A DNA stretch of 64,000 nt from an uncultured Candidatus Saccharibacteria bacterium. GTDB taxonomy: Bacteria; Patescibacteriota; Saccharimonadia; CAILAD01; JADZBC01. Position numbers and translations under genes: made by a program. The stretch is taken from contig CAYPSN010000002.1 in NCBI GenBank assembly GCA_964413715.1, positions 850 to 64,849 of the forward strand, given 5' to 3'. Positions 4,230-63,936 of this stretch are shown in pieces. Every line of letters begins with the position of its first letter. The stretch's first letter is position 1. Below the pieces are notes generated by a model. That model searched no databases. It had not been told where the DNA came from and worked only from the letters and a program-made list of their open reading frames with translations.

Positions 4230-5309
4230 TCAATCTGAAGCGGTAGTGTTGGCTTGTTTTTTACGCCTTAGCAGCGTTAAGGAGAGAATAAGTATTGCTA
4301 AAATTACAACTAACAGACCAAAGGCCATAATTTTCTGTGAGCTGGAAGCCACCAGAGCAACAATCCCGAAGACAATTGAGAAGGCGTAGATAACCAAAAC
4401 GGCCTGGCGCTGACTGAGCCCAACGTCGAGCAACAGGTGGTGAATATGCCCCCTGTCGGCACTGAATGGTGAGCGGCCAGCTGCCACCCTACGCACGACT
4501 GCCCAAAATGTATCAACAATTGGCAGACCAAGTACGAGCATGGCGGTAGCCAGCTTTGCACCCGAGAATATAGCAAGAATCCCAATCGTCATACCTAAGA
4601 AGTACGCTCCGCTATCACCATTAAAAATCTTGGCTGGATAGAAATTGTAAACTAAGTAGCCCAAGCATGCGCCGGCTAATACCAAGGCTATGAGTGCTGT
4701 GTTGGGCTGATTTACTCTGGGCCCAACGGCTACAAAGAACATCACAATAGCTGCAATTGCTGCTACTCCACTCGATAATCCATCGAGACCATCGAGTAAA
4801 TTCATGGTGTTGGTCATGCCTACGAGCCAAATAGTCGTTAAAGCCACTGCCACGGCATTAATACTTAGGGTTATCCCTACGATCGGCACCGTCCACTGCG
4901 AGGTATTAAACACAAACGAAGTGCCGAAGGGGTTACTTACGGCGTCAATACTAATGCCAAACCCGATTGCCGCCACCAAGGCCGCCACAACCTGGCCTGC
5001 TAACTTCAGCCATGGGTTCACTCCCCAAACGTCATCGGCCAAACCAATCAGCAGGACCATGGTTCCAGCTACAATGAGACCAACAAATGGCTTCTGGATA
5101 GTGCTTACGAGAGCTAGACTAATGGCCGTAAACGAGGCATAGATGGCCAAGCCACCAGCCCGAGCAATTGGCTTGGTGTGGAGCTTACGCTTTTCCTTGG
5201 AAACCTGATCAACAGCACCAATACGAAAGGCCAATTTACGCACTGCGGGCACCATCAAACAAGCTACAAGTGCAGCGGCTAAAAAGCCGAATACATACAG
5301 CATGGTCAT
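4230..5309 (-). CDS. UDP-GlcNAc:undecaprenyl-phosphate GlcNAc-1-phosphate transferase (WecA/TagO family, MraY-like GT4)
   Basis: 11 predicted TM helices; KLHTKPIARAGGLAIY, ADDVWG, NLLDGLDGL, KIFNGDSGAYFLG, DRGHIHHLLL motifs. Confidence 0.7.
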   Translation of the reverse strand: MTMLYVFGFLAAALVACLMVPAVRKLAFRIGAVDQVSKEKRKLHTKPIARAGGLAIYASFTAISLALVSTIQKPFVGLIVAGTMVLLIGLADDVWGVNPWLKLAGQVVAALVAAIGFGISIDAVSNPFGTSFVFNTSQWTVPIVGITLSINAVAVALTTIWLVGMTNTMNLLDGLDGLSSGVAAIAAIVMFFVAVGPRVNQPNTALIALVLAGACLGYLVYNFYPAKIFNGDSGAYFLGMTIGILAIFSGAKLATAMLVLGLPIVDTFWAVVRRVAAGRSPFSADRGHIHHLLLDVGLSQRQAVLVIYAFSIVFGIVALVASSSQKIMAFGLLVVILAILILSLTLLRRKKQANTTASD

Positions 5310-8369: not shown

Positions 8370-9383
8370 ATGGACTTGACCGTAAAGATCCTGGACAACC
8401 AGGCCAACATCCATCGTGGGGACGTTCTCGTCGCTTCGATCGGCCTTGACCCCTGGGAACAGGTGGACAAAGTCATCCTCATGCCCGACATCACGCAGGA
8501 CGAGACGGAACACGTCATTCGTCTCGCGGGTTCCCACATCCGTCACTTCGTTCGTCACCGCGACACCCCCGTGTTCGGCGAGCTGATGCGAGCGAAGCAC
8601 TACGACAACACCCTGACGTGCGCCATGTCGCACGAGATGCTGGAGACCCAGCAGATCGCCGACGACGTGAAGGAGATGGAAGTCGACTTCATCAAAGAGA
8701 TGTGCAAGCAGCTCTACATCCCGATCATCGTCGCTGTGTTCAAGACTGTCGACGAAGCCATCCTTTCGATCCTCTCTGACCCCCGTCTCGACAGCAAGAT
8801 CAGGTACGAGACGACTGAGAAGGACTTCCTGGGTGAAATGGGGCTCACGGTCTACTCGGAGAAGGATTCGGGCTTCCGATTCTGGCACTCTGTCATGATC
8901 GGCGGCTTCGACCTCGATGTCGTCCCTCTCTACCACCCCGTTCGACAGGACGGCCGCTCATCAGTGGGCATGATCAACGGTGACACGGATGCATACATCC
9001 GTGGTCGATCAGTCCGTTTCATCCATGCCCCTCAGGAAGCTCTGGTCGCCAGCAGTGGCTGGGCCACCTGGAGCTACGTCAACCACCCTTACTACGCGAA
9101 AGGACCCACGTTCGGCATGAAGATCATCCCGTGGGAGCTGCTTTCGCAGGAAGGGGCTGACAGCCTGAAGGATGTCCTGCTCGGTGCCTTGGAGATCGAC
9201 GGCAAGTACGTCGAGGTCAGCGGTGGCTTCCGTGCCCCTGCGGGTACGCCTTCCATACCTCACGGAGGAAAGCGGCTCGGATCTGAGGAACGAGCATACT
9301 GGTCGATCCAGGTGCTCAAGCAAGAAGGTGAGCTCGAAGGATCTCACATCCCTAGCTGGGCCGCATCCGTGGCCCGCGTCTGA
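8370..9383 (+). CDS. hypothetical protein (337 aa), high-GC island gene
   Basis: ATG at 8370 preceded by GGAGG; the ORF-track TTG extension is unlikely. Visibly GC-rich codons; no recognisable motif. Confidence 0.5.
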   Translation: MDLTVKILDNQANIHRGDVLVASIGLDPWEQVDKVILMPDITQDETEHVIRLAGSHIRHFVRHRDTPVFGELMRAKHYDNTLTCAMSHEMLETQQIADDVKEMEVDFIKEMCKQLYIPIIVAVFKTVDEAILSILSDPRLDSKIRYETTEKDFLGEMGLTVYSEKDSGFRFWHSVMIGGFDLDVVPLYHPVRQDGRSSVGMINGDTDAYIRGRSVRFIHAPQEALVASSGWATWSYVNHPYYAKGPTFGMKIIPWELLSQEGADSLKDVLLGALEIDGKYVEVSGGFRAPAGTPSIPHGGKRLGSEERAYWSIQVLKQEGELEGSHIPSWAASVARV

Positions 9384-9391
9384 CCTACCCC

Positions 9392-9444
9392 GCCCCCACC
9401 TGATTCCTGAAAGGGATGATGGTGGGGGCACTTCTATTTGTGGG
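9392..9444 (+). terminator. intrinsic terminator of the 8370-9383 gene
   Basis: GCCCCCACC-20 nt loop-GGTGGGGGC followed by ACTTCTATTTGTG. Confidence 0.6.
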
Positions 9445-9520: not shown

Positions 9521-9573
9521 ACTGCTGTTCGTATCCCGAGCAATTTGCTCCTTAACAGAAAGGTTCTCGCACC

Positions 9574-10158
9574 GTGCCAGAACCAAAAAATACAAAGCGT
9601 CGTTATAAGCGCAAAACACTCACGGTCTTCGTTATGGACGCCCCGAATGTCGATGCAAGCTTCGGCCTGCTACTAGAGAGGGCCCCGCTGCCATCCGAGC
9701 GAATGCGCATGGATGCTCTTATGCAGTGGCTAGAGGGCAAGCAGCAGGCAAACGGCAGCGAGCTGTACGCCAAGATCTTCGTAAATCGTCCTGCTGAGTC
9801 AGTTGCAAGCAACAGGCAATTCGGCTGGGTGGTTGCCATGCAGAAGCTTGGCTACCATGTGTATTCAAAGATTCGAACCACTGATGACAGCGACGTTGAC
9901 GAAGATATGGTCGCATATATCAACAAGCTCGTGAAGTGCCACGAAGTTGTAGAGATCGTGCTGGCATCCAACGACGGCCAAAGGTTTCATAACATCCTGG
10001 AGATCTTGGCCTGCAACGGAGTCAAGGTAACAATCTTGGGTTTCAACGAGTTCCCAAGCATTCTCACTAGAAACGAGCTCTTCGAATTCGTCCCGTACAG
10101 CAGCATTCCTGGCCTGATGCCAGCAACGGGTTGCCAAACGGAAAGCCAAGCAACATGA
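9574..10158 (+). CDS. NYN/LabA-like (PIN-fold) nuclease domain protein
   Basis: KTLTVFVMDAPNVDASFG... resembles the NYN/DUF88 N-terminal strand plus acidic cluster. GTG start with AAAGG upstream. Confidence 0.5.
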   Translation: MPEPKNTKRRYKRKTLTVFVMDAPNVDASFGLLLERAPLPSERMRMDALMQWLEGKQQANGSELYAKIFVNRPAESVASNRQFGWVVAMQKLGYHVYSKIRTTDDSDVDEDMVAYINKLVKCHEVVEIVLASNDGQRFHNILEILACNGVKVTILGFNEFPSILTRNELFEFVPYSSIPGLMPATGCQTESQAT

Positions 10159-49032: not shown

Positions 49033-49217
49033 GAATGACCTCCTAGGTCGATGGTAAGTTGGGCGAACTCTGATCCTTGGCTAAAGCAAGGTCCAGTAGC
49101 GTGCGCTCTCGTGAGAAGAACGCACATTACCGAACCCTGCTGCATGCATCCTTGTAATGAACCTTGAACTAAATCAAAGTGGAATACATTTTATACTCAA
49201 TAGTGTGTTTTGTCAAG

Positions 49218-57623: not shown

Positions 57624-57665
57624 TCTAATCTAAAAACCCCTCGAATGAGGGGTTTTTAGATTAGA
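57624..57665. terminator. bidirectional intrinsic terminator
   Basis: CTAATCTAAAAACCCCTC-GAAT-GAGGGGTTTTTAGATTAG. Confidence 0.7.
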
Positions 57666-58239
57666 AAGCCGGGTCAGCGGTCTCTACGCCTTCCGGCATA
57701 TCCCGCCACGCCACAGGAATTACACATACGGGCTCTATATCCGCATAAGAACGCCATTCGTCACCCCTATGGTGTTCAAAATTTGCCGCATCAAAAACAT
57801 ACACATAGCCCGGCTCCTCCGCATGCCTTGCTGAATCAAGCATGTCGGCAGTGGCATAGAATCGCCATCGGTCGGCAGATCCTCCCCAGCCACTATGACT
57901 ACCTTTGCCTGCAGCACCATGCCCCCTTAATACACCCATAAATATTGCGGGGTCAATGCTCCGAGCCGCACAAACTGCTGGCTCTCCATCTGGAATATTT
58001 TCGCCAGTCTTAGGGTTAAATTGCATTTGCTGTCTTGGTTCGAGATGCGCCAGCTTTCTATCGGTACCATGAAAAACATAATCGCCATTCCTAGCAAGCC
58101 ACTCTAGTGCCTCGCGTCCAGTAACTACGCCCATTTCCACGGCTTTTTCTGGTCCAAGCGCAGCCAATTGAGCTTCAACTCCTAGAGCTACATTACTATC
58201 GCGCCTGATAGGGCCAGGATGTTCTGGCTTTTCTTTCAT
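57661..58239 (-). CDS. hypothetical protein (192 aa)
   Basis: ATG at 58239 (MKEKPEHPG...); no family recognised. Confidence 0.4.
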   Translation of the reverse strand: MKEKPEHPGPIRRDSNVALGVEAQLAALGPEKAVEMGVVTGREALEWLARNGDYVFHGTDRKLAHLEPRQQMQFNPKTGENIPDGEPAVCAARSIDPAIFMGVLRGHGAAGKGSHSGWGGSADRWRFYATADMLDSARHAEEPGYVYVFDAANFEHHRGDEWRSYADIEPVCVIPVAWRDMPEGVETADPAF

Positions 58240-58249
58240 AAATTCTAAC

Positions 58250-59179
58250 CTACCCTTCCTTCTTGCAGAGTGCAATAATCAGATTCTGCGTGGCGCTACT
58301 GCTATCGAGCATGCCAGTCTTGATACTGTAATCAGCTTCTACGATCAGTGCATATGCCCGACGCAAATCATCCAGCGTCATTTTCATAGCTACTTGCATA
58401 GCTTTTTCGGCAGGGTATGGCTTAATGCCAAATTGCTTAGCCCAACCACTTCCCTGGCCAGCGTTATCGTGTGCCAACACAATATTGCGATACTGCCCCA
58501 CGAGCATTGCGATGATCTGCTGGTCAGCCACCCCCTGCCGTACCAAATTCTTGTATGTCGACATAGCTCGATCCAGGTTTTGCGCCACCACCGCGTCAGT
58601 AAGTTCAAAAATCGTCTGCTCTACATTGGCCACCACTAATTCTTCAATTGCTGTCTGTGTAACGTTTTTATCATAAGCCACCAGCTTTTGAATCTCTTGT
58701 GCCAGCTGCCACTGGTCATTACCAATACGCCTGAGTAAGCTCATGGCAAGTGCGGGCGAAATTGTTCCGCCGTGGCGCTGGGCCTGCTGCACTATCCAAT
58801 CACGCAGTGCCACGTCACTAAGCTGCTTAAATTCCTTCGCCTGCTTCAAGGCAGAGAGTTTCTTAAAGTAACTACTACGCCGATCAACCTTCGGCTCCTC
58901 TATAAGTAGCACCGTACTATCGGCAACAGAAGCCAAAACTTCATCAATCTTTTCTACAGCCTTTTTATTGTCACCCAACCCGCGTAGAATGATGAACCGA
59001 CTACTTGCCAACAGCGGCATTACTGCTAGGGCATCGAGCAAGTTGCCCACCGAATGTTCGGCCATATCGATTACTTCTAAGTTTAAATCCCCATCAGATT
59101 TTTTGGCATAATGGCCCTTTAGCCGCTCCACTTCTTGCCGCATCGCGTAGCTGTTTTCGCCATAAAAGAATAGAATCAT
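58250..59179 (-). CDS. holA: DNA polymerase III subunit delta
   Basis: MILFFYGENSYAMRQEVERL N-terminus and overall architecture; 309 aa. Confidence 0.75.
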   Translation of the reverse strand: MILFFYGENSYAMRQEVERLKGHYAKKSDGDLNLEVIDMAEHSVGNLLDALAVMPLLASSRFIILRGLGDNKKAVEKIDEVLASVADSTVLLIEEPKVDRRSSYFKKLSALKQAKEFKQLSDVALRDWIVQQAQRHGGTISPALAMSLLRRIGNDQWQLAQEIQKLVAYDKNVTQTAIEELVVANVEQTIFELTDAVVAQNLDRAMSTYKNLVRQGVADQQIIAMLVGQYRNIVLAHDNAGQGSGWAKQFGIKPYPAEKAMQVAMKMTLDDLRRAYALIVEADYSIKTGMLDSSSATQNLIIALCKKEG

Positions 59180-59194
59180 ATACCTATTGTACCT

Positions 59195-59259
59195 GAAAAT
59201 AAAAAAGGACCCCGCTGGCCAGCTCGCCTCCCGAAGGATTTGAGCCAGCCAGCCGAGTC
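59195..59259 (-). repeat. 65-bp terminator-like repeat, copy 1
   Basis: GAAAATAAAAAAGGACCCCGCTGGCCAGCTCGCCTCCCGAAGGATTTGAGCCAGCCAGCCGAGTC; identical copy at 59871-59935. Confidence 0.8.
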
Positions 59260-59260
59260 A

Positions 59261-59803
59261 TCACCAGCCGTCGGATCGTTCTCTGTGCTCTTCCCACGTC
59301 GACCTGAGGACACCTAGCAGTTCCTCTACGTCGCTTCTGCACTTTGCATCATCCGTCACTACTGCCCAGCCAAGTTCAGCGCATGAACCATCCTCTATGT
59401 TATCCATCGAATAACAAAGCATGAGGGCATCAACGACAACAGTCTTGTCGTCACCTTGTTGGAACACAACGATATAGAGAGTTCCGCCAGCGAACGTTGG
59501 GCCGCATGCCAGCAAGAGGTCGTTCCGCAGCTCAGCGTCGATAAGCTCATCTTCTACACCAACGAACTCGATGACGCTCCTGAACTGATCATCCCGTGCC
59601 AATCTGACTTGGTGGCAATAGCACGGCCCTCGAGGCCGTACATAGGCTTGTATGAAGTCAGCTAGCAGACCAAGCGCTGCCTGCACCAAATCGCACTTGC
59701 GGCAGGTACCAGTTCCGAGCTCGATGCTCTTGTCCCTCCACTGTTCCACATGCACCCTGCGAGAATGAGGGTGCCACGAAACAGCCAAAACTGACCTGTT
59801 CAA
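59261..59803 (-). CDS. hypothetical Cys-rich protein (~180 aa), high GC
   Basis: TTG at 59803 after AAAGGAAA; GTG starts at 59755 and 59749 are also possible. CRKCDL..CYCH cysteine cluster. Confidence 0.35.
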   Translation of the reverse strand: MNRSVLAVSWHPHSRRVHVEQWRDKSIELGTGTCRKCDLVQAALGLLADFIQAYVRPRGPCYCHQVRLARDDQFRSVIEFVGVEDELIDAELRNDLLLACGPTFAGGTLYIVVFQQGDDKTVVVDALMLCYSMDNIEDGSCAELGWAVVTDDAKCRSDVEELLGVLRSTWEEHRERSDGW

Positions 59804-59870
59804 TTTATTTCCTTTCAAAGGCCTATTGGGCAATGTAAGTATGCTGCTGGGGACCAATAAAATCAAGCGT

Positions 59871-59935
59871 GAAAATAAAAAAGGACCCCGCTGGCCAGCT
59901 CGCCTCCCGAAGGATTTGAGCCAGCCAGCCGAGTC
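59871..59935 (-). repeat. 65-bp terminator-like repeat, copy 2
   Basis: Identical to copy 1; 12 nt downstream (minus strand) of the 65-aa ORF stop. Confidence 0.8.
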
Positions 59936-59947
59936 GGCATGTTCCCC

Positions 59948-60145
59948 TCAGTCGGGGAACGGATTGGTGGAGCCGGCCATCGCCAGGTCCATGGAGCCAC
60001 CACCGCGCGGGCGGCGCTGGGGGGTGAGGACGTCCCAGCCCTCACTCAGCTCCGGATGGTCACGGCAGATCTCGCCGTGGGTCTTGCCCTGGGCTCGCAT
60101 CTCCTCGATGCGAGCCGCCTGCTGTCGTGGGCTCAGATCGCCCAT
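59948..60145 (-). CDS. small hypothetical protein (65 aa), overlaps the 3' end of the 696-aa ORF by 85 nt
   Basis: ATG preceded by GGAGAGGAA. Whether this ORF or the C-terminal tail of the large ORF is real cannot be decided from sequence. Confidence 0.3.
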   Translation of the reverse strand: MGDLSPRQQAARIEEMRAQGKTHGEICRDHPELSEGWDVLTPQRRPRGGGSMDLAMAGSTNPFPD

Positions 60146-62150
60146 GTTGGTTCCTCTCCGCCCGTTCGTGGGCTAGGTAGGTAAGCTTGCGGTCGCAAGC
60201 TCGGTGGGTGTATCGCAAACTACGAACCATCTGTTCGGCCCGTAGTACATCTGGATGCCCTGCATCGCTCCTTTCGTATCCTTCGGACAGATCAACGGCC
60301 TCGTGCCAGTACACCTGCGAGGAGGAGTACTCGAGTAGAAGTCTACCAGGCAATTCCGACCCAGTCCAGCTACGAAGATGATTCACCACTGCCAGCGCAA
60401 CGCTGTAGTCAGGGAGACTCACTTCAATAGCCGGGTCGAGTCTAGCAGGCCTCTCACGAGAGAATTCTTCCCCCAACAACCTCAGCTTTCGCCTTAGCCA
60501 GATTGTTGCCGCAGCAAACATTCTATGACGACGAAACTCATCATCATCAAGAAACAGTCGGGCGAGAGCCTCGATTACCTCGCTCTCATGCTCTTCGGGA
60601 TAGATATCATCCCTAAAGCCAAGAAGCTCGAGAGCAAGCCTCAAATCCTGAAATCGCATCAGGCCCAAGGTCTCCTCAGCAGTTAGTTCACCACTTTCCC
60701 CAGAGAATCCAGAGAGCCTCTCCTCAAAGAACTCTTCGAGTAAGTACAGAGGCTCGAGAGTCTCTGCCAGCCAACTGGGCGATTCGAGATAGTACTCGAA
60801 TTGGACCTGCTCTTGTTCGCGCCGGGTAATAGCATCCGTATCCACCGGAAGTTCGGACATGACCTGCATCATAGTCCTTGCTCCCTCTATGGCAGATCTC
60901 AGATCGTCACTCCACTGGACGGTGGATCGCCTGAGCGCTCCACCGTCATCTGCAACAATCGTAAGCCCAGGCAGAACCTTGGCATACTTTTCAAGCAGAG
61001 CGTGTATGGCTGGTATCCCCCAGTCAGCATCGAGCTCAGCCAACGTGCGCTGATATGGATCGAGATGCCACCAGCTCCCGTCGTTTACCTGCAGCACTAC
61101 TCCGTAGTGAAAATCCATGACTTTCACCTGAGAGCGTTGCAAGAAAGTAAGCTCTTTTGAGGACCAGTCATGGAAAGAGGTGCCTGCACCCCCGAGCTCC
61201 TCGAAGGCCTCATGAACTTCGGTATAGACAGGCAGCTTGTCGGCAACCAATCTATCCACCGCCCACTCGATCTGTGACGCAAGAAGCACCGGAGCACCTG
61301 CGAGGCGAGCAAAAGCTAGTAGTGCAATACTCATTCCAAGACAGTTCGGGGTTTGGGTGCCTTCACCCAACTTGCCGTATTGCCTAGGTAGAACGCCCTC
61401 GGCCGGGTAGTCGTTTTCACCAGAGATGCCTTCGAACCACCCATAGTTCGACCTGAGGTGATGCATATCAACCACATAGTTGGCGATAACTTCGTTACCC
61501 TTCTGAACTTCCTTGGGGTCTTCATCCTCGTCGTTGTTCGCAGGATTGCGTGCGTAATCCAATGCCAATTGCGCCAAATCGGCTTCGTCGGCCTTCTCAA
61601 GGCGCCGAAGATGCCGAATGGCTTCTTCGACTTCTTCCGGATAGTAGGTAACGACAATATCGTCAGTCACCTCTACATGCCAACATGGTCCGGTTCGCCC
61701 CCTGGCTGCCTCAAGTTCTTGGTTAGTTTTCGTAATCCTGTAAGCCTTGAGCAACTCGTCATAAACCGTCTGCAGAGCAGTGCGTTGGTCGGCCAGGCTA
61801 AGGGCTTGCCACATAAGGGCGACATTCCTTACAGTATCCGGCAGGCACTCCGCCGCAGCATCTATGAGGCTTTCGCCAAGATGCTCCAGCACGACAGCAT
61901 CAAACGGATCAATTCCGCCAAACACACCAGCCTGCTTAAGCGCTTGGTCTTCTGGGAGGGCATTGAAAAGCTCACCCATTTCGATGTGGCCTGCCCTGTA
62001 GGCGATTGACTCATCGAATTCACCAAGCTGCAAAAGCGAGTAAAGATCGCGACGCTCACGCGTCTCGGCGACCGAATCACAAACTGCTTGTTCGAACGTA
62101 ATGCCGCAGCCCTTTTCAAAGGCCATAGCAACGAGCTCCATGAACTCCAT
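60060..62150 (-). CDS. large acidic hypothetical protein with central transglutaminase-like (papain-fold Cys-His-Asp) core
   Basis: ATG 5 nt after AGGAGGG. NCLGMSIALLAFARLAGAPVLL (Cys), DFHYGVVLQVNDGSWWHLDPY (His..Asp) in the spacing typical of Transglut_core. Confidence 0.5.
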   Translation of the reverse strand: MEFMELVAMAFEKGCGITFEQAVCDSVAETRERRDLYSLLQLGEFDESIAYRAGHIEMGELFNALPEDQALKQAGVFGGIDPFDAVVLEHLGESLIDAAAECLPDTVRNVALMWQALSLADQRTALQTVYDELLKAYRITKTNQELEAARGRTGPCWHVEVTDDIVVTYYPEEVEEAIRHLRRLEKADEADLAQLALDYARNPANNDEDEDPKEVQKGNEVIANYVVDMHHLRSNYGWFEGISGENDYPAEGVLPRQYGKLGEGTQTPNCLGMSIALLAFARLAGAPVLLASQIEWAVDRLVADKLPVYTEVHEAFEELGGAGTSFHDWSSKELTFLQRSQVKVMDFHYGVVLQVNDGSWWHLDPYQRTLAELDADWGIPAIHALLEKYAKVLPGLTIVADDGGALRRSTVQWSDDLRSAIEGARTMMQVMSELPVDTDAITRREQEQVQFEYYLESPSWLAETLEPLYLLEEFFEERLSGFSGESGELTAEETLGLMRFQDLRLALELLGFRDDIYPEEHESEVIEALARLFLDDDEFRRHRMFAAATIWLRRKLRLLGEEFSRERPARLDPAIEVSLPDYSVALAVVNHLRSWTGSELPGRLLLEYSSSQVYWHEAVDLSEGYERSDAGHPDVLRAEQMVRSLRYTHRACDRKLTYLAHERAERNQHGRSEPTTAGGSHRGDASPGQDPRRDLP

Positions 62151-62194
62151 TTGGCCCTCCTGGGCTATGTCAAAGCTGCCCTAAGGCAGTTGCC

Positions 62195-62207
62195 ACCGAA
62201 TTTCGGT
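62195..62207. promoter_or_regulatory. 6-1-6 palindrome ACCGAAtTTCGGT between promoter and RBS of the 696-aa gene (candidate operator)
   Basis: Perfect inverted half-sites; shares the CCGAA core with the microrepeat array upstream of the RHH gene. Confidence 0.4.
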
Positions 62208-62215
62208 ACCGCCGA

Positions 62216-62244
62216 TTTATACCATTTTTCACCTTAAAATACAA
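62216..62244 (-). promoter_or_regulatory. sigma70-like promoter of the 696-aa gene
   Basis: Minus strand TTGTAT-17 nt-TATAAA. Confidence 0.45.
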
Positions 62245-62253
62245 TCATAAGTG

Positions 62254-62318
62254 CAATAAAAAAGGACTCCGCTGGCCAGCTCGTCATCCCTTGGGAATCA
62301 GAGCCAGCCAGCCGAGTC
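62254..62318 (-). repeat. 65-bp terminator-like repeat, diverged copy 3
   Basis: CAATAAAAAAGGACTCCGCTGGCCAGCTCGTCATCCCTTGGGAATCAGAGCCAGCCAGCCGAGTC. Stem arms conserved; loop changed while keeping an inner mini-hairpin. Confidence 0.8.
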
Positions 62319-62319
62319 G

Positions 62320-62571
62320 TCACATGCGAAGTTCGAGCTCCCTTTCGGTGCCATCAGGCGCCCGAACGACGATGATGCATCCCTCCAGGGCACCACACTC
62401 GACAAGCCATCCAAGCGTCTGGAGGGAAGACCTCAAGACCCAGCTTGTATTCACGCCGAATTTGCCTTTCAGACCTTCGAGAATGGCTTTTTCCTCGCGA
62501 TTCACCCTGACCTGCAACGTCTCTTCACGAGACTGCGTGCCAGACAAACTGAGCACCTGGCGATCTGTCAC
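62320..62571 (-). CDS. ribbon-helix-helix DNA-binding protein (MobC/CopG-like), 83 aa
   Basis: Perfect SD AGGAGG-8 nt-GTG at 62571; LQVRVNREEKAILEGLKGKFGVNTSWVLRSSL matches the RHH beta-strand plus two-helix pattern. Confidence 0.5.
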   Translation of the reverse strand: MTDRQVLSLSGTQSREETLQVRVNREEKAILEGLKGKFGVNTSWVLRSSLQTLGWLVECGALEGCIIVVRAPDGTERELELRM

Positions 62572-62608
62572 AACAACTACCTCCTTATAGGATGCGATGA
62601 GCACTGTG

Positions 62609-62637
62609 AGTATGCAGCTTACTGGGCCAGATTTCAA
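62609..62637 (-). promoter_or_regulatory. sigma70-like promoter of RHH gene
   Basis: Minus strand TTGAAA-17 nt-CATACT. Confidence 0.4.
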
Positions 62638-62680
62638 CCCCTAAAACGAAAAGAGGCCCAGCCGGCCCCGCCCTTCCCCC

Positions 62681-62857
62681 GCCGAAGCGTGGAGTTGGTG
62701 CGGGACCGGCCGAAGCCGTTATGCGGTTGGCATGGCATGCATGCTTCCCCGCGGGATGTCGCTGTCGCTGTGAGCCGAAGGCGGATGGCCGACTGCAGAT
62801 GGCGATGCGATGGAACCGAAGGTCGATGGTCGAAGACCGAAGGCCGAAGGTTCGAAG
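62681..62857. repeat. degenerate microrepeat array (CCGAAGG / CGATGG units, at least 8 copies)
   Basis: Copies at 62681, 62710, 62775, 62815, 62829, 62837, 62844 and 62852, in ~500 bp of visibly GC-rich sequence without a convincing ORF, upstream of the RHH gene. Confidence 0.6.
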
Positions 62858-63267
62858 GCTCCTGTAACCCTGGGCAGGGGGCCGTAAGCACACTCGAGCG
62901 CTCGAGTCAGGAGCTTTACCTGCTCCAACCACGTCCTTGGACACCCGGCTTTCGCCAGGAGGATGTAGCTTGCCTACGTATCAACCTACGTGGTGATCCG
63001 CGGACCGTTCCACTCCACCATTCTGCACACGGCATCAGGCTTTAGGTTAATTCTCGTCTTTCCGAGCTGTCCGCCAGTCTGTCTGGCACATCACCCCTAG
63101 CCGAAGCGTGAGGGCGAACTTGTGATTAATTTTCCACGTGTTGTCCGGCTTTTTATTTTGCGGGACAAAGAATATTATAGCCTACGAAGACTTTTTGTCA
63201 ATATCTATTTGAGCTTCTGGCACTTGGGGCAAATATGTGTGCCGCGGCCAGCCAATCATGACTATTA

Positions 63268-63936
63268 TTAACCTTGTGATTTGTACTGCTCTATTGCCTC
63301 GGATATTCGCACCCTCTCAGGCAATTCCTGATTAAGTTTTGCCATCTCAGAGCCTGGCACTATCGTAAGCTTGATGAGTTCGTCGGCGTCGCCCCCTGTG
63401 GCAATTATTTGATCAATCGTTTCGTCACTCAAGCTATATGTGTCACGTAGAATACCCCTACTCGCCTCCTGAGTTTCTGTCGAAAATAATGCCCCGATCA
63501 CTTCACCCAAGCGAGCTCGAGCTGGATTCGGACCTTGGGGCTCTTTGCCTGTTAATCCTGCTACAATCTCATAAGTAGCCTCTTTACCCGAACTACCAAA
63601 TGGGTCTTTGAGCTCATGAATATCGTCATCTACAGCCCAATCACGAACTCGAGACTCAGGGTATACCGCCAGGGCGTCCGATTCATCAACTACCATTGTG
63701 TCGGGATCAACACCCTGTGGAGTACGACCGTCTGCGTCCATGAGCTGAATAATGTCTTTCGGGTGGGTTATATAAGCCCCTACCTTAAATGCCTTCCCTG
63801 TACCACCTTTAAAAGCCTTTTCTTTCGCATTACGACTCTGCCTTGCGCCACCGCTGGCTTTTTCACGTAGTTCATTATATTCATGCATTAAAGCGCGTGC
63901 GGCCAGGATATTCTGCTTTTGTTCTGCCGTGACCAC
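63268..63936 (-). CDS. hypothetical protein; frame stays open to the window end (start either GTG 63936 or beyond 64000)
   Basis: No in-frame stop between 63936 and 64000; AAGG 10 nt upstream of the GTG; no family recognised. Confidence 0.4.
   Translation of the reverse strand: MVTAEQKQNILAARALMHEYNELREKASGGARQSRNAKEKAFKGGTGKAFKVGAYITHPKDIIQLMDADGRTPQGVDPDTMVVDESDALAVYPESRVRDWAVDDDIHELKDPFGSSGKEATYEIVAGLTGKEPQGPNPARARLGEVIGALFSTETQEASRGILRDTYSLSDETIDQIIATGGDADELIKLTIVPGSEMAKLNQELPERVRISEAIEQYKSQG

Follow-up and report, generated by a model that had tools for sequence, protein, structure and literature searches.

A repeated terminator-like hairpin at the borders of gene units in a variable slot upstream of holA in Saccharibacteria

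Gene units and hairpin copies between fpg and holA

Saccharibacteria have tiny, highly syntenic genomes and an epibiont lifestyle, and, to our knowledge, where and how they acquire new genes is poorly understood. The DNA studied here, a 64-kb stretch of a Saccharibacteria (TM7) MAG that we refer to as the window, contains three copies (T1 to T3) of a hairpin-forming element upstream of the essential gene holA. The copies occupy a variable slot between fpg and holA and are accompanied by a diverged hairpin of the same design, T4. The features of this region, with the bit scores of the copies against covariance model R1, are as follows:

58250–59191, minus strand: holA (DNA polymerase III delta); a TACAAT box of its own at 59191–59186 lies 6 nt ahead of the ATG (59179)
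59194–59259, minus strand: T1, candidate terminator copy 1; hairpin GACUCGGCUGGCUGGCUC...GAGCUGGCCAGCGGGGUC followed by U6AUUUUCA; 101.6 bits
59261–59749, minus strand: 162-aa ORF, payload of unit 1; a TTG-extended 201-aa version reaches 59866
59838–59866, minus strand: putative promoter, TTGATT-17-CATACT, read from the sequence directly after T2
59870–59935, minus strand: T2, candidate terminator copy 2; 98.6 bits
59948–60145, minus strand: 65-aa ORF, second ORF of unit 2; 69% GC (GC3 82%); weak DUF433-like match
60060–62150, minus strand: 696-aa protein, payload of unit 2; invariant Cys-His-Asp triad
62216–62244, minus strand: weak putative promoter, TTGTAT-17-TATAAA, read from the sequence after T3
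62255–62318, minus strand: T3, candidate terminator copy 3; same arms, other 19-nt loop; 79 bits
62320–62571, minus strand: 83-aa ORF, payload of unit 3; weak ribbon-helix-helix match
about 62640–62722 (hairpin 62649–62717), minus strand: T4; long hairpin, GC-rich, enclosing a UUCG mini-hairpin and followed by UCUUUUCGUUUU

According to a repeat search, T1 and T2 are identical at 66 of 66 positions, one base more than the 65 given in the initial annotation, and are spaced 676 bp apart. T3, which starts at 62255, has the same arms around a different loop, much as had been described. More specifically, its 5′ arm, GACTCGGCTGGCTGGCTC, is identical to that of T1 and T2, and its 3′ arm carries one change (minus-strand G to A, converting a U·G to a U-A pair). 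The inner UCC/GGA pairs are retained in T3; the loop and junction bases differ, and the loop sequence is unlike that of T1 and T2. Loop length across the three copies is 17–19 nt. Each copy follows the stop codon of a minus-strand ORF: T1 lies 1 nt past that of the 162-aa ORF, T2 12 nt past that of the 65-aa ORF and T3 1 nt past that of the 83-aa ORF. T1 is also 14 nt ahead of the holA ATG. The borders of the element are sharp (GACUC...UUUUCA). T4, which scored 29.5 bits with R1 and is 94.5% identical to positions 9345–9417 of the related locus L007, would terminate an upstream, non-coding unit of ~530 nt.

The payloads of the different units had no detectable similarity to each other in a self-comparison, and their GC content is 54–69% versus 48.7% for the genome. 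Beyond the weak matches listed above, searches with the 162-aa ORF and the smaller ORFs found no homologs or known domains, and the AF2 model of the 162-aa ORF was unusable (pLDDT 54). The 696-aa protein has remote, unannotated homologs only, and its core is predicted to be transglutaminase-like; the tail of its ORF overlaps the 65-aa ORF. None of the slot payloads matched a recombinase in Pfam, PHROG or PADLOC.

The 83-aa ORF is preceded by a conserved ribosome-binding site, AUAAGGAGG, and by a putative TTGAAA-17-CATACT promoter (62637–62609) located after T4, which was detected in a promoter scan and which the box after T2 resembles. The similarity between T2 and T3 continues ~17 nt beyond the U-tract, to 59856 and 62238, respectively, and stops just after a TTG(T/A)TT box. 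The promoter-like boxes after T4, T3 and T2 are consensus matches only. At holA, the spacing between the TACAAT box and the ATG is kept in L007, L008, L010, L013, L020 and L025, and the gene appears to be leaderless.

Folding and conservation of the element

In minus-strand RNA, each of T1 to T3 forms a 17-bp hairpin followed by U6AUU, with folding energies of −36.8, −37.1 and −38.5 kcal/mol (z −4.3 to −5.3). In each of the three copies, the U-tract, UUUUUUAUU(UUCA), begins 1 nt past the end of the paired stem. Plus-strand RNA reached only −25.9 and −30.7 kcal/mol, internal loops replacing the G·U pairs of the minus strand. The minus strand was likewise favoured when folded as DNA (−15.9 vs −11.9, as compared with −36.8 vs −25.9 for RNA). 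The initial annotation had proposed a minus-strand RNA structure with a U-tract at gene 3′ ends, its wobble pairs confined to that strand, and had suggested folding as a check; the stable minus-strand hairpin found in all three copies agrees with each of these points. Among 85 hairpin-plus-T-run candidates in the window, T4, T3, T1 and T2 ranked first to fourth, T4 being the strongest at −50 kcal/mol.

The element thus resembles intrinsic terminators in having a stable, GC-rich hairpin on the transcribed strand, a U-rich tract immediately 3′ of it and a same-orientation gene ending just upstream, an arrangement also present in L007, L008 and L013. This anatomy suggests that transcription terminates at the element, which is best read as a variant of known intrinsic terminators. 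It differs from usual ones in its length and stability (17 bp plus an inner mini-hairpin, with all four hairpins at the top of the window's ranking), in forming a small locus-specific family as opposed to unrelated hairpins, and in being 89–96% conserved between species, loop included, where genes are about 70% identical (63–70% for holA DNA and 73–76% for pnp).

We examined the stem in six copies from the only four species that carry the element, a narrow basis for comparison. All 20 pairs were 100% paired, and the main helix contained five one-sided changes and no two-sided one. All five are switches from G·U to G-C or A-U that keep the pairing valid on the minus strand only. As each is a one-sided wobble/Watson-Crick switch, there is no true compensatory change, and the initial annotation was mistaken in describing such changes. 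Counted by hand, 102 single substitutions are possible in the stem, and only 20 of these preserve pairing; assuming a transition:transversion ratio of 2:1, p is about 0.01 for all five observed ones doing so. The stem is preserved in a manner typical of terminators, through G·U/G-C switches. The loop is identical in T1, T2, L007, L008 and L013; loop conservation is not needed for plain termination. Five of six other intergenic regions tested held comparably conserved non-coding blocks (about 86–100% over 17–97 nt, some of them short), so high conservation alone is not special to the element.

Across the window and ~270 kb of retrieved loci, many of them overlapping, R1 matched the fpg–holA slot only: the remaining 61 kb of the window had no copy, nor did any other part of the syntenic loci. 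The arm motifs were absent from the rest of the window (chance expectation, 0.33 and 0.02 matches), and genome, metagenome and viral collections scanned for the exact arms yielded no more than chance matches. These data argue against a ubiquitous terminator, the finding that the initial annotation had named as refuting its proposal.

Variation of the slot among relatives

Among eight genomes compared, the slot was empty or held one gene, one gene plus a reverse gene, or at least four units. In L010 it is empty, the fpg stop running straight into the holA TACAAT box. L007 and L013 each contain one membrane-protein gene followed by the element, and L008 has an additional reverse-strand gene. In L025 and L026, two near-identical strains whose holA is 98% identical to that of the window, the gene upstream is a different one: the reverse gene, not T1, adjoins holA. 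The slot of the window comprises the three units, the non-coding RNA unit and a 497-aa gene; the latter is a neighbouring insertion with a 40-bp segment of the fpg 3′ end directly repeated on either side. The copies mark the exact borders of units that are missing from related genomes or differ there, consistent with their earlier description as cassette boundaries. Cassette variation between strains, which had also been suggested as a check, was observed as slot differences in L025 and L026; an alternative order of the window strain's own cassettes was not found among the contigs carrying its cassette proteins. These contigs keep one order, and no exchange or stacking event was caught, an observation that counts against a recombination flank.

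In L007, L008 and L013, the element occupies an orthologous position after an orthologous gene. Between L008 and L013, identity is 90–97% in the leader, 37–57% in the gene body and 87–100% in the element. The housekeeping genes of this pair are 82% identical and the membrane gene 57%; by comparison, the membrane genes of L007 and L008 are 79% identical and their holA genes 66%. Because these identities conflict, the history of the payload disagrees with that of the genome.

The minimal mobile elements of Neisseria are recombination-driven hotspots of gene content in naturally competent bacteria (PMC3787668, PMC3082526). Like them, the slot holds different genes in different strains between the same conserved flanks (87–100% identical versus 37–57% for the core of the segment), and the variable segment has no mobility genes according to Pfam, PHROG and PADLOC. 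Moreover, the host phylum is naturally competent, as shown in other Saccharibacteria, and integrates DNA by RecA-dependent homologous recombination (PMC10633639), and the window encodes recA, recX, ssb and pilMNO. Unlike in minimal mobile elements, it is a 66-nt terminator and a promoter/leader of ~100 nt, not core genes, that form the conserved flanks, and the units are also tandemly stacked, with the flank repeated.

Proposed insulation and exchange at the element

The locus is best read as a slot for accessory genes that one Saccharibacteria lineage has between fpg and holA. Within it, the element is probably a strong intrinsic terminator, insulating the apparently leaderless holA, closing stacked promoter-gene-terminator units and also serving as a recombination flank. 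The sequence itself shows that each unit has the layout of a self-contained transcription unit, with a promoter-like box, a payload and a hairpin with U-tract, the −35-like box of the next unit opening a few bases past the U-tract. Three such units stand head to tail behind a fourth (promoter, ~530-nt non-coding RNA and T4), and the last terminator abuts the −10 box of holA. The terminator may then block read-through from foreign, independently promoted genes into essential holA; with read-through stopped, the slot would be a safe place for new genes.

The second proposed function concerns exchange. Nothing but the element and the promoter/leader is common to otherwise unrelated payloads, and these two would thus provide homology arms. 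Following natural transformation, RecA-dependent recombination might swap payloads between strains and species, and Campbell-type or unequal crossovers within the terminator could stack extra units, leaving near-identical copies in direct repeat with sharp borders. The pattern of conserved leader, unrelated gene body and conserved element, together with the strain-level differences, is compatible with homologous recombination at the element, which we infer may be a conserved flank for swapping and stacking units. A length of 66 bp is short for an efficient RecA crossover, and the identity of T1 and T2 could stem from gene conversion or in-situ duplication instead of capture.

The design of the locus is a slot beside an essential gene in which foreign, self-promoted genes are each sealed by the same very strong terminator. 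If the element is a crossover point, it would provide a simple, integrase-free means of modular gene exchange in a naturally competent, genome-reduced lineage, and a ready-made safe-harbour site with a terminator for engineering cultivable strains. As a terminator only, it would still be a clear case of a transcriptional insulator kept at every hotspot boundary.

That last, narrower explanation is the strongest competitor, albeit an unlikely one: the copies would descend from an old tandem duplication of the slot or from gene conversion, would take no part in gene entry or exit, and the payload differences would reflect unrelated illegitimate events. The whole termination anatomy applies equally to it, the apparent kinship of the boxes after T4 and T2 (TTGAxx-17-CATACT) is what duplication of a slot would produce, and the samples show no arrangement variants. 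The failure to find a recombinase nearby also fits: none of the tyrosine or serine type, and no integrase, was detected as a Phage_integrase or recombinase Pfam domain in the two overlapping loci of ±10 kb around holA and the 696-aa gene or at 28–49 kb of the window. However, the payloads have no detectable similarity while T1 and T2 are 100% identical; an old duplication is disfavoured because an age sufficient to erase the genes should not have spared perfect terminators. In addition, the sharp drop in identity from element to gene body between the closest relatives, L008 and L013, tells against it, and the incongruence between membrane and housekeeping genes suggests that exchange has occurred repeatedly, with the element as its boundary.

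It is doubtful that a site-specific recombinase encoded elsewhere recognizes the hairpin, perhaps in the form of folded single-stranded DNA, as a dedicated site and moves circular gene-plus-element cassettes in and out in the manner of attC. The related notion of cassette capture with no integron integrase detected nearby, whereby a recombinase encoded elsewhere recognizes incoming ssDNA at the hairpin and self-expressing cassettes are added serially upstream of holA, is just as doubtful; were it true, the slot would be a functional analogue of the integron in the candidate phyla radiation with a different site chemistry. As in integrons, including CALINs, small units (676 bp and 2.4 kb), mostly of unknown function, are arrayed in one direction, each with one uniformly oriented element at its 3′ end. 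The element, like attC, is an imperfect, strand-asymmetric hairpin with conserved arms and a variable centre, as the arms and loop of T3 illustrate. Its sharp borders, a conservation far exceeding that seen in the flanking genes, small ORFs without detected homologs or domains and a 696-aa protein with remote, unannotated homologs would all suit such a site. An attC site carries R″ (RYYYAAC) and R′ (GTTRRRY) at the hairpin ends and occurs with an adjacent IntI or in a many-attC CALIN. In regular-expression searches of both strands, 58500–63500 contained no paired RYYYAAC/GTTRRRY sites, and no single core lay within ~15 nt of any copy. Integron cassettes are promoterless and expressed from a common Pc, whereas the units here seem to have their own promoters. 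A U-tract, together with wobble changes compatible with RNA alone, suits an RNA structure that terminates transcription rather than such a site. An attC assignment was rejected on the missing core sites, the failure to find an integrase in the annotated parts, and the presence of only 3–4 elements, at one locus. Xer/dif-type sites (IMEX, pdif modules) have two arms of ~11 bp and a central region of 6–8 bp; this assignment was rejected on arms of 12–18 nt separated by 17–19 nt.

A precedent for a stem-loop as an insertion landmark is provided by group IIC introns, which target terminator hairpins as DNA (PMC1702495, PMC3001079). The slot is similar in that new DNA lies immediately downstream of the U-tract. 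It differs in having no intron, reverse transcriptase or ribozyme sequence, with no Rfam match in 59000–63400 at E ≤ 1.

It is very unlikely that the copies are insertions of a self-copying miniature mobile repeat (REP/BIME-, MITE- or Correia-like) at three intergenic sites, with only an incidental likeness to a terminator. Several traits of the element would suit such a repeat: it is a palindrome, short and imperfect, with sharp ends and identical copies, and it is intergenic, just past stop codons, as are many REP elements. REP/BIME and Correia-type repeats act as terminators or mRNA stabilisers, and an effect on transcript 3′ ends is likely here as well. Repeats of the REP/BIME or MITE type have many dispersed intergenic copies, target-site duplications or terminal inverted repeats, and a cognate transposase (RAYT, DDE). 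By contrast, the element is restricted to one 3-kb slot, at an orthologous position in relatives; no target-site duplications were found beside the copies, nor terminal inverted repeats apart from the hairpin itself, and the neighbouring genes that were annotated had no recorded Y1, DDE or RAYT transposase domain. A REP/BIME or MITE assignment was rejected on the absence of dispersal (64 kb of genome and ~270 kb of loci), target-site duplications and transposase.

Finally, an assembly artefact, in which strain variants were collapsed or chimerically joined at the shared repeat, is scarcely credible: two contigs from other samples stop inside a copy (L016 at T1 and L017 at T2), but the repeated copies are not artefactual, because independent assemblies from other samples, made with different assemblers, reproduce every element junction (L016/L019/L028, L017, L002 and L029). 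The junction of T3 with the 696-aa gene is present in L015, L016 and L017, that of T2 with the 162-aa ORF in L015 and L016, and that of T1 with holA in L015 and L002. The k141_ name of L016 suggests a 141-mer assembly, which would span the whole of the 66-bp T2.

Structure of the element and organization of the fpg–holA slot

A repeat search of the window located two 66-nt direct copies of the element, T1 and T2, which are 100% identical and spaced 676 bp apart, and a third copy, T3, that has both arms in common with them. The coordinates in the initial annotation were confirmed by this search. The arm motifs had no further occurrence in the 64-kb window, and their recurrence in the three copies was well above chance. 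The window is a portion of a 104.6-kb metagenomic scaffold, and its gene content is in line with Saccharibacteria (RNase J, recA, recX, pilMNO, small ribosomal operons); one relative of its holA product is a protein named Candidatus Saccharibacteria. The element was found at every unit boundary of the slot, in agreement with the earlier placement of the copies at cassette boundaries. Each unit consists of a promoter-like box, one or more accessory genes (the payload) and a terminal element.

Features of the fpg–holA slot, listed in minus-strand order
Beyond the window: fpg, first in order
After fpg: 497-aa gene
63215–63254: 40 bp remaining from the 3' end of fpg, after the 497-aa gene; its partner repeat lies at 4351–4390 of the fetched locus L001 (64790–64829 in window numbering, beyond the window)
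62640–63201 (−): perfect TTGACA-16-TATAAT promoter and ~530 nt of non-coding sequence (candidate non-coding RNA unit; 8420–8925 in the related locus L008), then hairpin T4 (62649–62717)
After T4: promoter, AUAAGGAGG ribosome-binding site and 83-aa RHH-like ORF, then T3 (62255–62318)
After T3: 696-aa ORF (60060–62150, −) and 65-aa ORF (59948–60145, −), then T2 (59870–59935)
After T2: 162-aa ORF, then T1 (59194–59259), then holA

On the minus strand, the element reads GACUCGGCUGGCUGGCUC - loop - GAGCUGGCCAGCGG(G/A)GUCC - UUUUUUAUU, the last part being the U-tract. The minus-strand RNA folded into a stem of 5+12 bp with one G × G mismatch, two or three G·U pairs and an inner mini-hairpin of 3–5 bp. 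The hairpin was stable in all three copies (−36.8, −37.1 and −38.5 kcal/mol; z −4.3 to −5.3). By contrast, the plus-strand RNA reached only −25.9 and −30.7 kcal/mol, because the wobble pairs turn into A × C mismatches. The assignment to the minus strand, the wobble argument and the U-tract of the initial annotation therefore stand. DNA folding parameters favoured the minus strand as well (−15.9 vs −11.9). In a scan of the window for hairpins followed by a T-run, the top four of 85 candidates were T4 (−50), T3 (−38.2) and T1/T2 (−36.8), the bulk of the remainder lying between −12 and −25. Three of four features of intrinsic terminators could be read from the anatomy of the element. Stop codons lie 1 nt (T1), 12 nt (T2) and 1 nt (T3) from the element start. 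These features argue strongly that the element is, in function, an intrinsic terminator.

T1 ends 2 nt from the TACAAT box of holA. This box precedes the ATG by 6 nt, and a leaderless holA is therefore probable. A (G)GTACAAT box occurs 6–8 nt before the holA ATG, without a Shine-Dalgarno sequence, in seven of seven genomes (window 59177–59191; L007, L008, L010, L013, L020 and L025), a pattern that suggests a leaderless mRNA throughout.

Six copies of the element from four species were aligned. All five main-stem substitutions were one-sided switches between G·U and G-C or A-U that preserve pairing on the minus strand only. By manual count, pairing survives just 20 of the 102 single substitutions that could occur in the stem, and the chance of five out of five is about 0.01 at a 2:1 transition bias. 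Such an outcome being unlikely by chance, the substitutions support selection on an RNA (or same-sense DNA) hairpin, but they are not covariation: no pair in any copy was altered on both sides, and the 'compensatory changes' originally ascribed to the third copy were not found. In T3, the inner UCC/GGA pairs are intact, the differences lying in the loop and at the junction. The loop sequence is the same in T1, T2 and the related loci L007, L008 and L013.

Distribution and variability of the slot

A covariance model built from the six-copy alignment gave full-length matches confined to the fpg–holA slot in the window and ~270 kb of loci searched, with T4 as one diverged relative at 29.5 bits. 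The initial annotation had weighed the prospect of a ubiquitous terminator following core genes; none was seen in the visible sequence, which amounts to ~7–9% of a typical Saccharibacteria genome. An exact two-arm pattern, too strict for the element variants of relatives, had three matches in GTDB representative genomes (Variovorax, Metapseudomonas and Hymenobacter) and one in JGI metagenomes, in a high-GC coding region, all attributable to chance; it had none in IMG/VR viral contigs. At gathering thresholds, Rfam models matched four tRNAs only, and 59000–63400 was without a match even at E ≤ 1. No description of the element or locus was found in the literature. CRISPR, dif and REP assignments were rejected on spacing, copy number and the absence of associated genes.

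To compare the slot among relatives, we fetched their holA neighbourhoods. L010 (74% amino acid identity in HolA) contains an empty site, with GTTACAATATAAGGTATG directly after the fpg stop codon. In L007, L013 and L008 (76–73%), the slot holds a single small membrane-protein gene, which ends in TGA-C and has the same element after it; the indel that sets L013 apart from the empty L010 corresponds precisely to one promoter-gene-element unit. The element is absent from L020 (71%) and L021/L022 (49%), where other sequences take its place. In L008, the element is separated from holA by a reverse-strand 140-aa gene (9522–9944, −), the stop codon of which overlaps the U-tract. This reverse gene also adjoins holA in place of T1 in L025 (1–213) and L026 (1–354), whose holA is 98% identical to that of the window; the slot therefore differs even among very close strains. 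The 140-aa gene has a weak 2H-phosphoesterase-like match (E 0.005). Directly downstream of holA, the window, L010 and L020 have a 192-aa gene with no domain (57661–58239, −) that L007, L008 and L013 lack, a second small presence/absence polymorphism adjoining holA.

Across species, the element is 89–96% identical, as compared to 63–70% for holA, 73–76% for pnp and 74–82% for fpg DNA. In 30-nt sliding windows, L008 and L013, the closest pair among the relatives (82% in housekeeping genes), were 90–97% identical in the promoter/leader and first ~30 codons, 37–57% in the gene body and 87–100% in the element. Conserved flanks surround unrelated cores in the window as well, where it is the unrelated RHH-like ORF that follows this promoter and ribosome-binding site. 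Mosaic exchange or, alternatively, strong diversifying selection would account for the nearly unrelated bodies of the membrane-protein gene in close relatives. Payload similarity does not follow genome similarity: the membrane genes of L007 and L008 are 79% identical (holA 66%), those of L008 and L013 57% (holA 82%). Non-coding blocks of comparable conservation occur in five of six further intergenic regions along the syntenic stretch (~86–100% over 17–97 nt, some short); conservation alone thus points to functional non-coding sequence without necessarily implying a recombination site.

The membrane-protein gene (L008 8960–9464; L013 9420–9919; L007 9430–9920) is conserved at 90–97% over the first ~100 nt after AUAAGGAGG. 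It lacks a canonical in-frame start codon near the ribosome-binding site, and gene callers begin far downstream.

Possible exchange of units and alternative explanations

We propose that the element ends transcription and so would shield the leaderless holA from read-through, which would account for its presence at the end of every retained unit. A role in recombination is plausible: element and leader could act as short homology arms for RecA-mediated exchange of payloads following natural transformation. The genes recA, recX, ssb and pilMNO lie in the window, and competence with homologous integration has been shown in other Saccharibacteria (PMC10633639). Stacking of units could arise from a crossover in the element, whether Campbell-type with a circular molecule, by unequal exchange or by homology-facilitated illegitimate recombination. 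Such a crossover would explain why the repeats are direct and sharply bordered (GACUC...UUUUCA) and why T1 and T2 are perfectly identical.

At the population level, the locus is similar to the recombination hotspots and minimal mobile elements known from competent Neisseria (PMC3787668, PMC3082526); it differs in that the flanks are regulatory elements rather than genes and the units are stacked in tandem. Terminator hairpins can serve as insertion landmarks for group IIC introns (PMC1702495), although no intron is present at this locus.

That the element is purely a terminator, duplicated incidentally, is plausible yet rather unlikely, as perfect terminators beside unrelated genes and incongruent payload similarities fit it poorly. 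The architecture also hints at a dedicated, integron-like site-specific recombination system. However, the resemblance to integron arrays is in layout only: an attC assignment was rejected for want of core sites, no integrase was found in the annotated parts, the units appear to carry promoters of their own (consensus matches after T4, T3 and T2), and the RNA-type wobble changes and U-tract speak for a transcriptional function. We regard such a system as very improbable. A self-spreading REP/MITE-type repeat merits even less credence, given the restriction to one locus and the orthologous position in relatives. Finally, an assembly artefact as the source of the repeated copies is excluded for practical purposes: the T3–696-aa, T2–162-aa and T1–holA junctions were recovered in contigs from other samples and assemblers (L016/L019/L028, L017, L002 and L029). 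Two contigs end within a copy of the element; repeats and hairpins are a frequent cause of contig ends. The cassette shuffling and copy-number variation envisaged in the initial annotation did not appear in this strain: contigs found via its cassette proteins had the same gene order only.

The 497-aa insertion lies between direct repeats of the fpg 3' end that match at 37 of 40 positions, the same footprint as that of the terminator copies, an insert bounded by duplicates of its upstream end, with a different repeat. Its gene has a weak glycosyltransferase-2 N-terminus, and the terminal codons of fpg were rewritten upon insertion.

Payload proteins and candidate small RNAs

The 162-, 83- and 65-aa ORFs had no significant family matches. 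Searches of the cassette proteins against Pfam, PADLOC and PHROG yielded no matches, and no relatives were found on viral contigs. The 696- and 65-aa proteins had no tblastn matches in phages or plasmids. In a word-indexed search, the 162-aa protein had no homologs; its single-sequence AF2 model was unusable (pLDDT 54). The same type of search had made the 696-aa protein an apparent orphan, wrongly: exhaustive phmmer identified 181 remote homologs, mostly ~540 aa, in an unannotated family that the word-indexed search had missed entirely. The cluster names of these homologs carried no taxonomic information. Residues C270, H348 and D364 are invariant in a 43-sequence alignment of this family, and two homologs weakly match Pfam Transglut_core. 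For the AF2 model (pLDDT 83), Foldseek listed mainly transglutaminases and a putative cysteine protease, all weak (E > 0.1). We infer a transglutaminase-like (or papain-like) enzyme core, seemingly set between large helical domains.

The GC content of the three larger payloads is 54–56% and that of the 65-aa ORF 69% (GC3 82%), versus 48.7% for the window, consistent with a foreign origin. Separate acquisition of the 65-aa ORF as a high-GC fragment is probable; its derivation from an actinobacterial host or from a phage would be speculation. This ORF has a good GGAGAGGA ribosome-binding site and is overlapped over 86 nt by the tail of the 696-aa ORF, a segment in which the AF2 model has a pLDDT < 50.

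The ~530-nt unit ended by T4 follows its perfect sigma-70 promoter (63201–63174) and contains no credible ORF. UUCG-type hairpins are abundant in it (RNA fold z −3.4), and it had no Rfam match at E ≤ 1. It is ~90% identical in L008, the two differing further by 1-nt indels and a CCUUCGG-rich insertion of 45 nt, and is missing from L010, L013 and L020; L007 keeps the last 73 nt only. We regard it as a candidate for a new accessory non-coding RNA in Saccharibacteria. Another candidate small RNA lies downstream of the RNase J gene (window 49065–49150, −; L001 20030–20115), where a 26-bp hairpin that looks perfect (−42 kcal/mol, z −5.9) comes after a TTGACA-17-TATAAA promoter. This region had no Rfam match at the gathering threshold and is 95–96% conserved in L007, L008 and L013.
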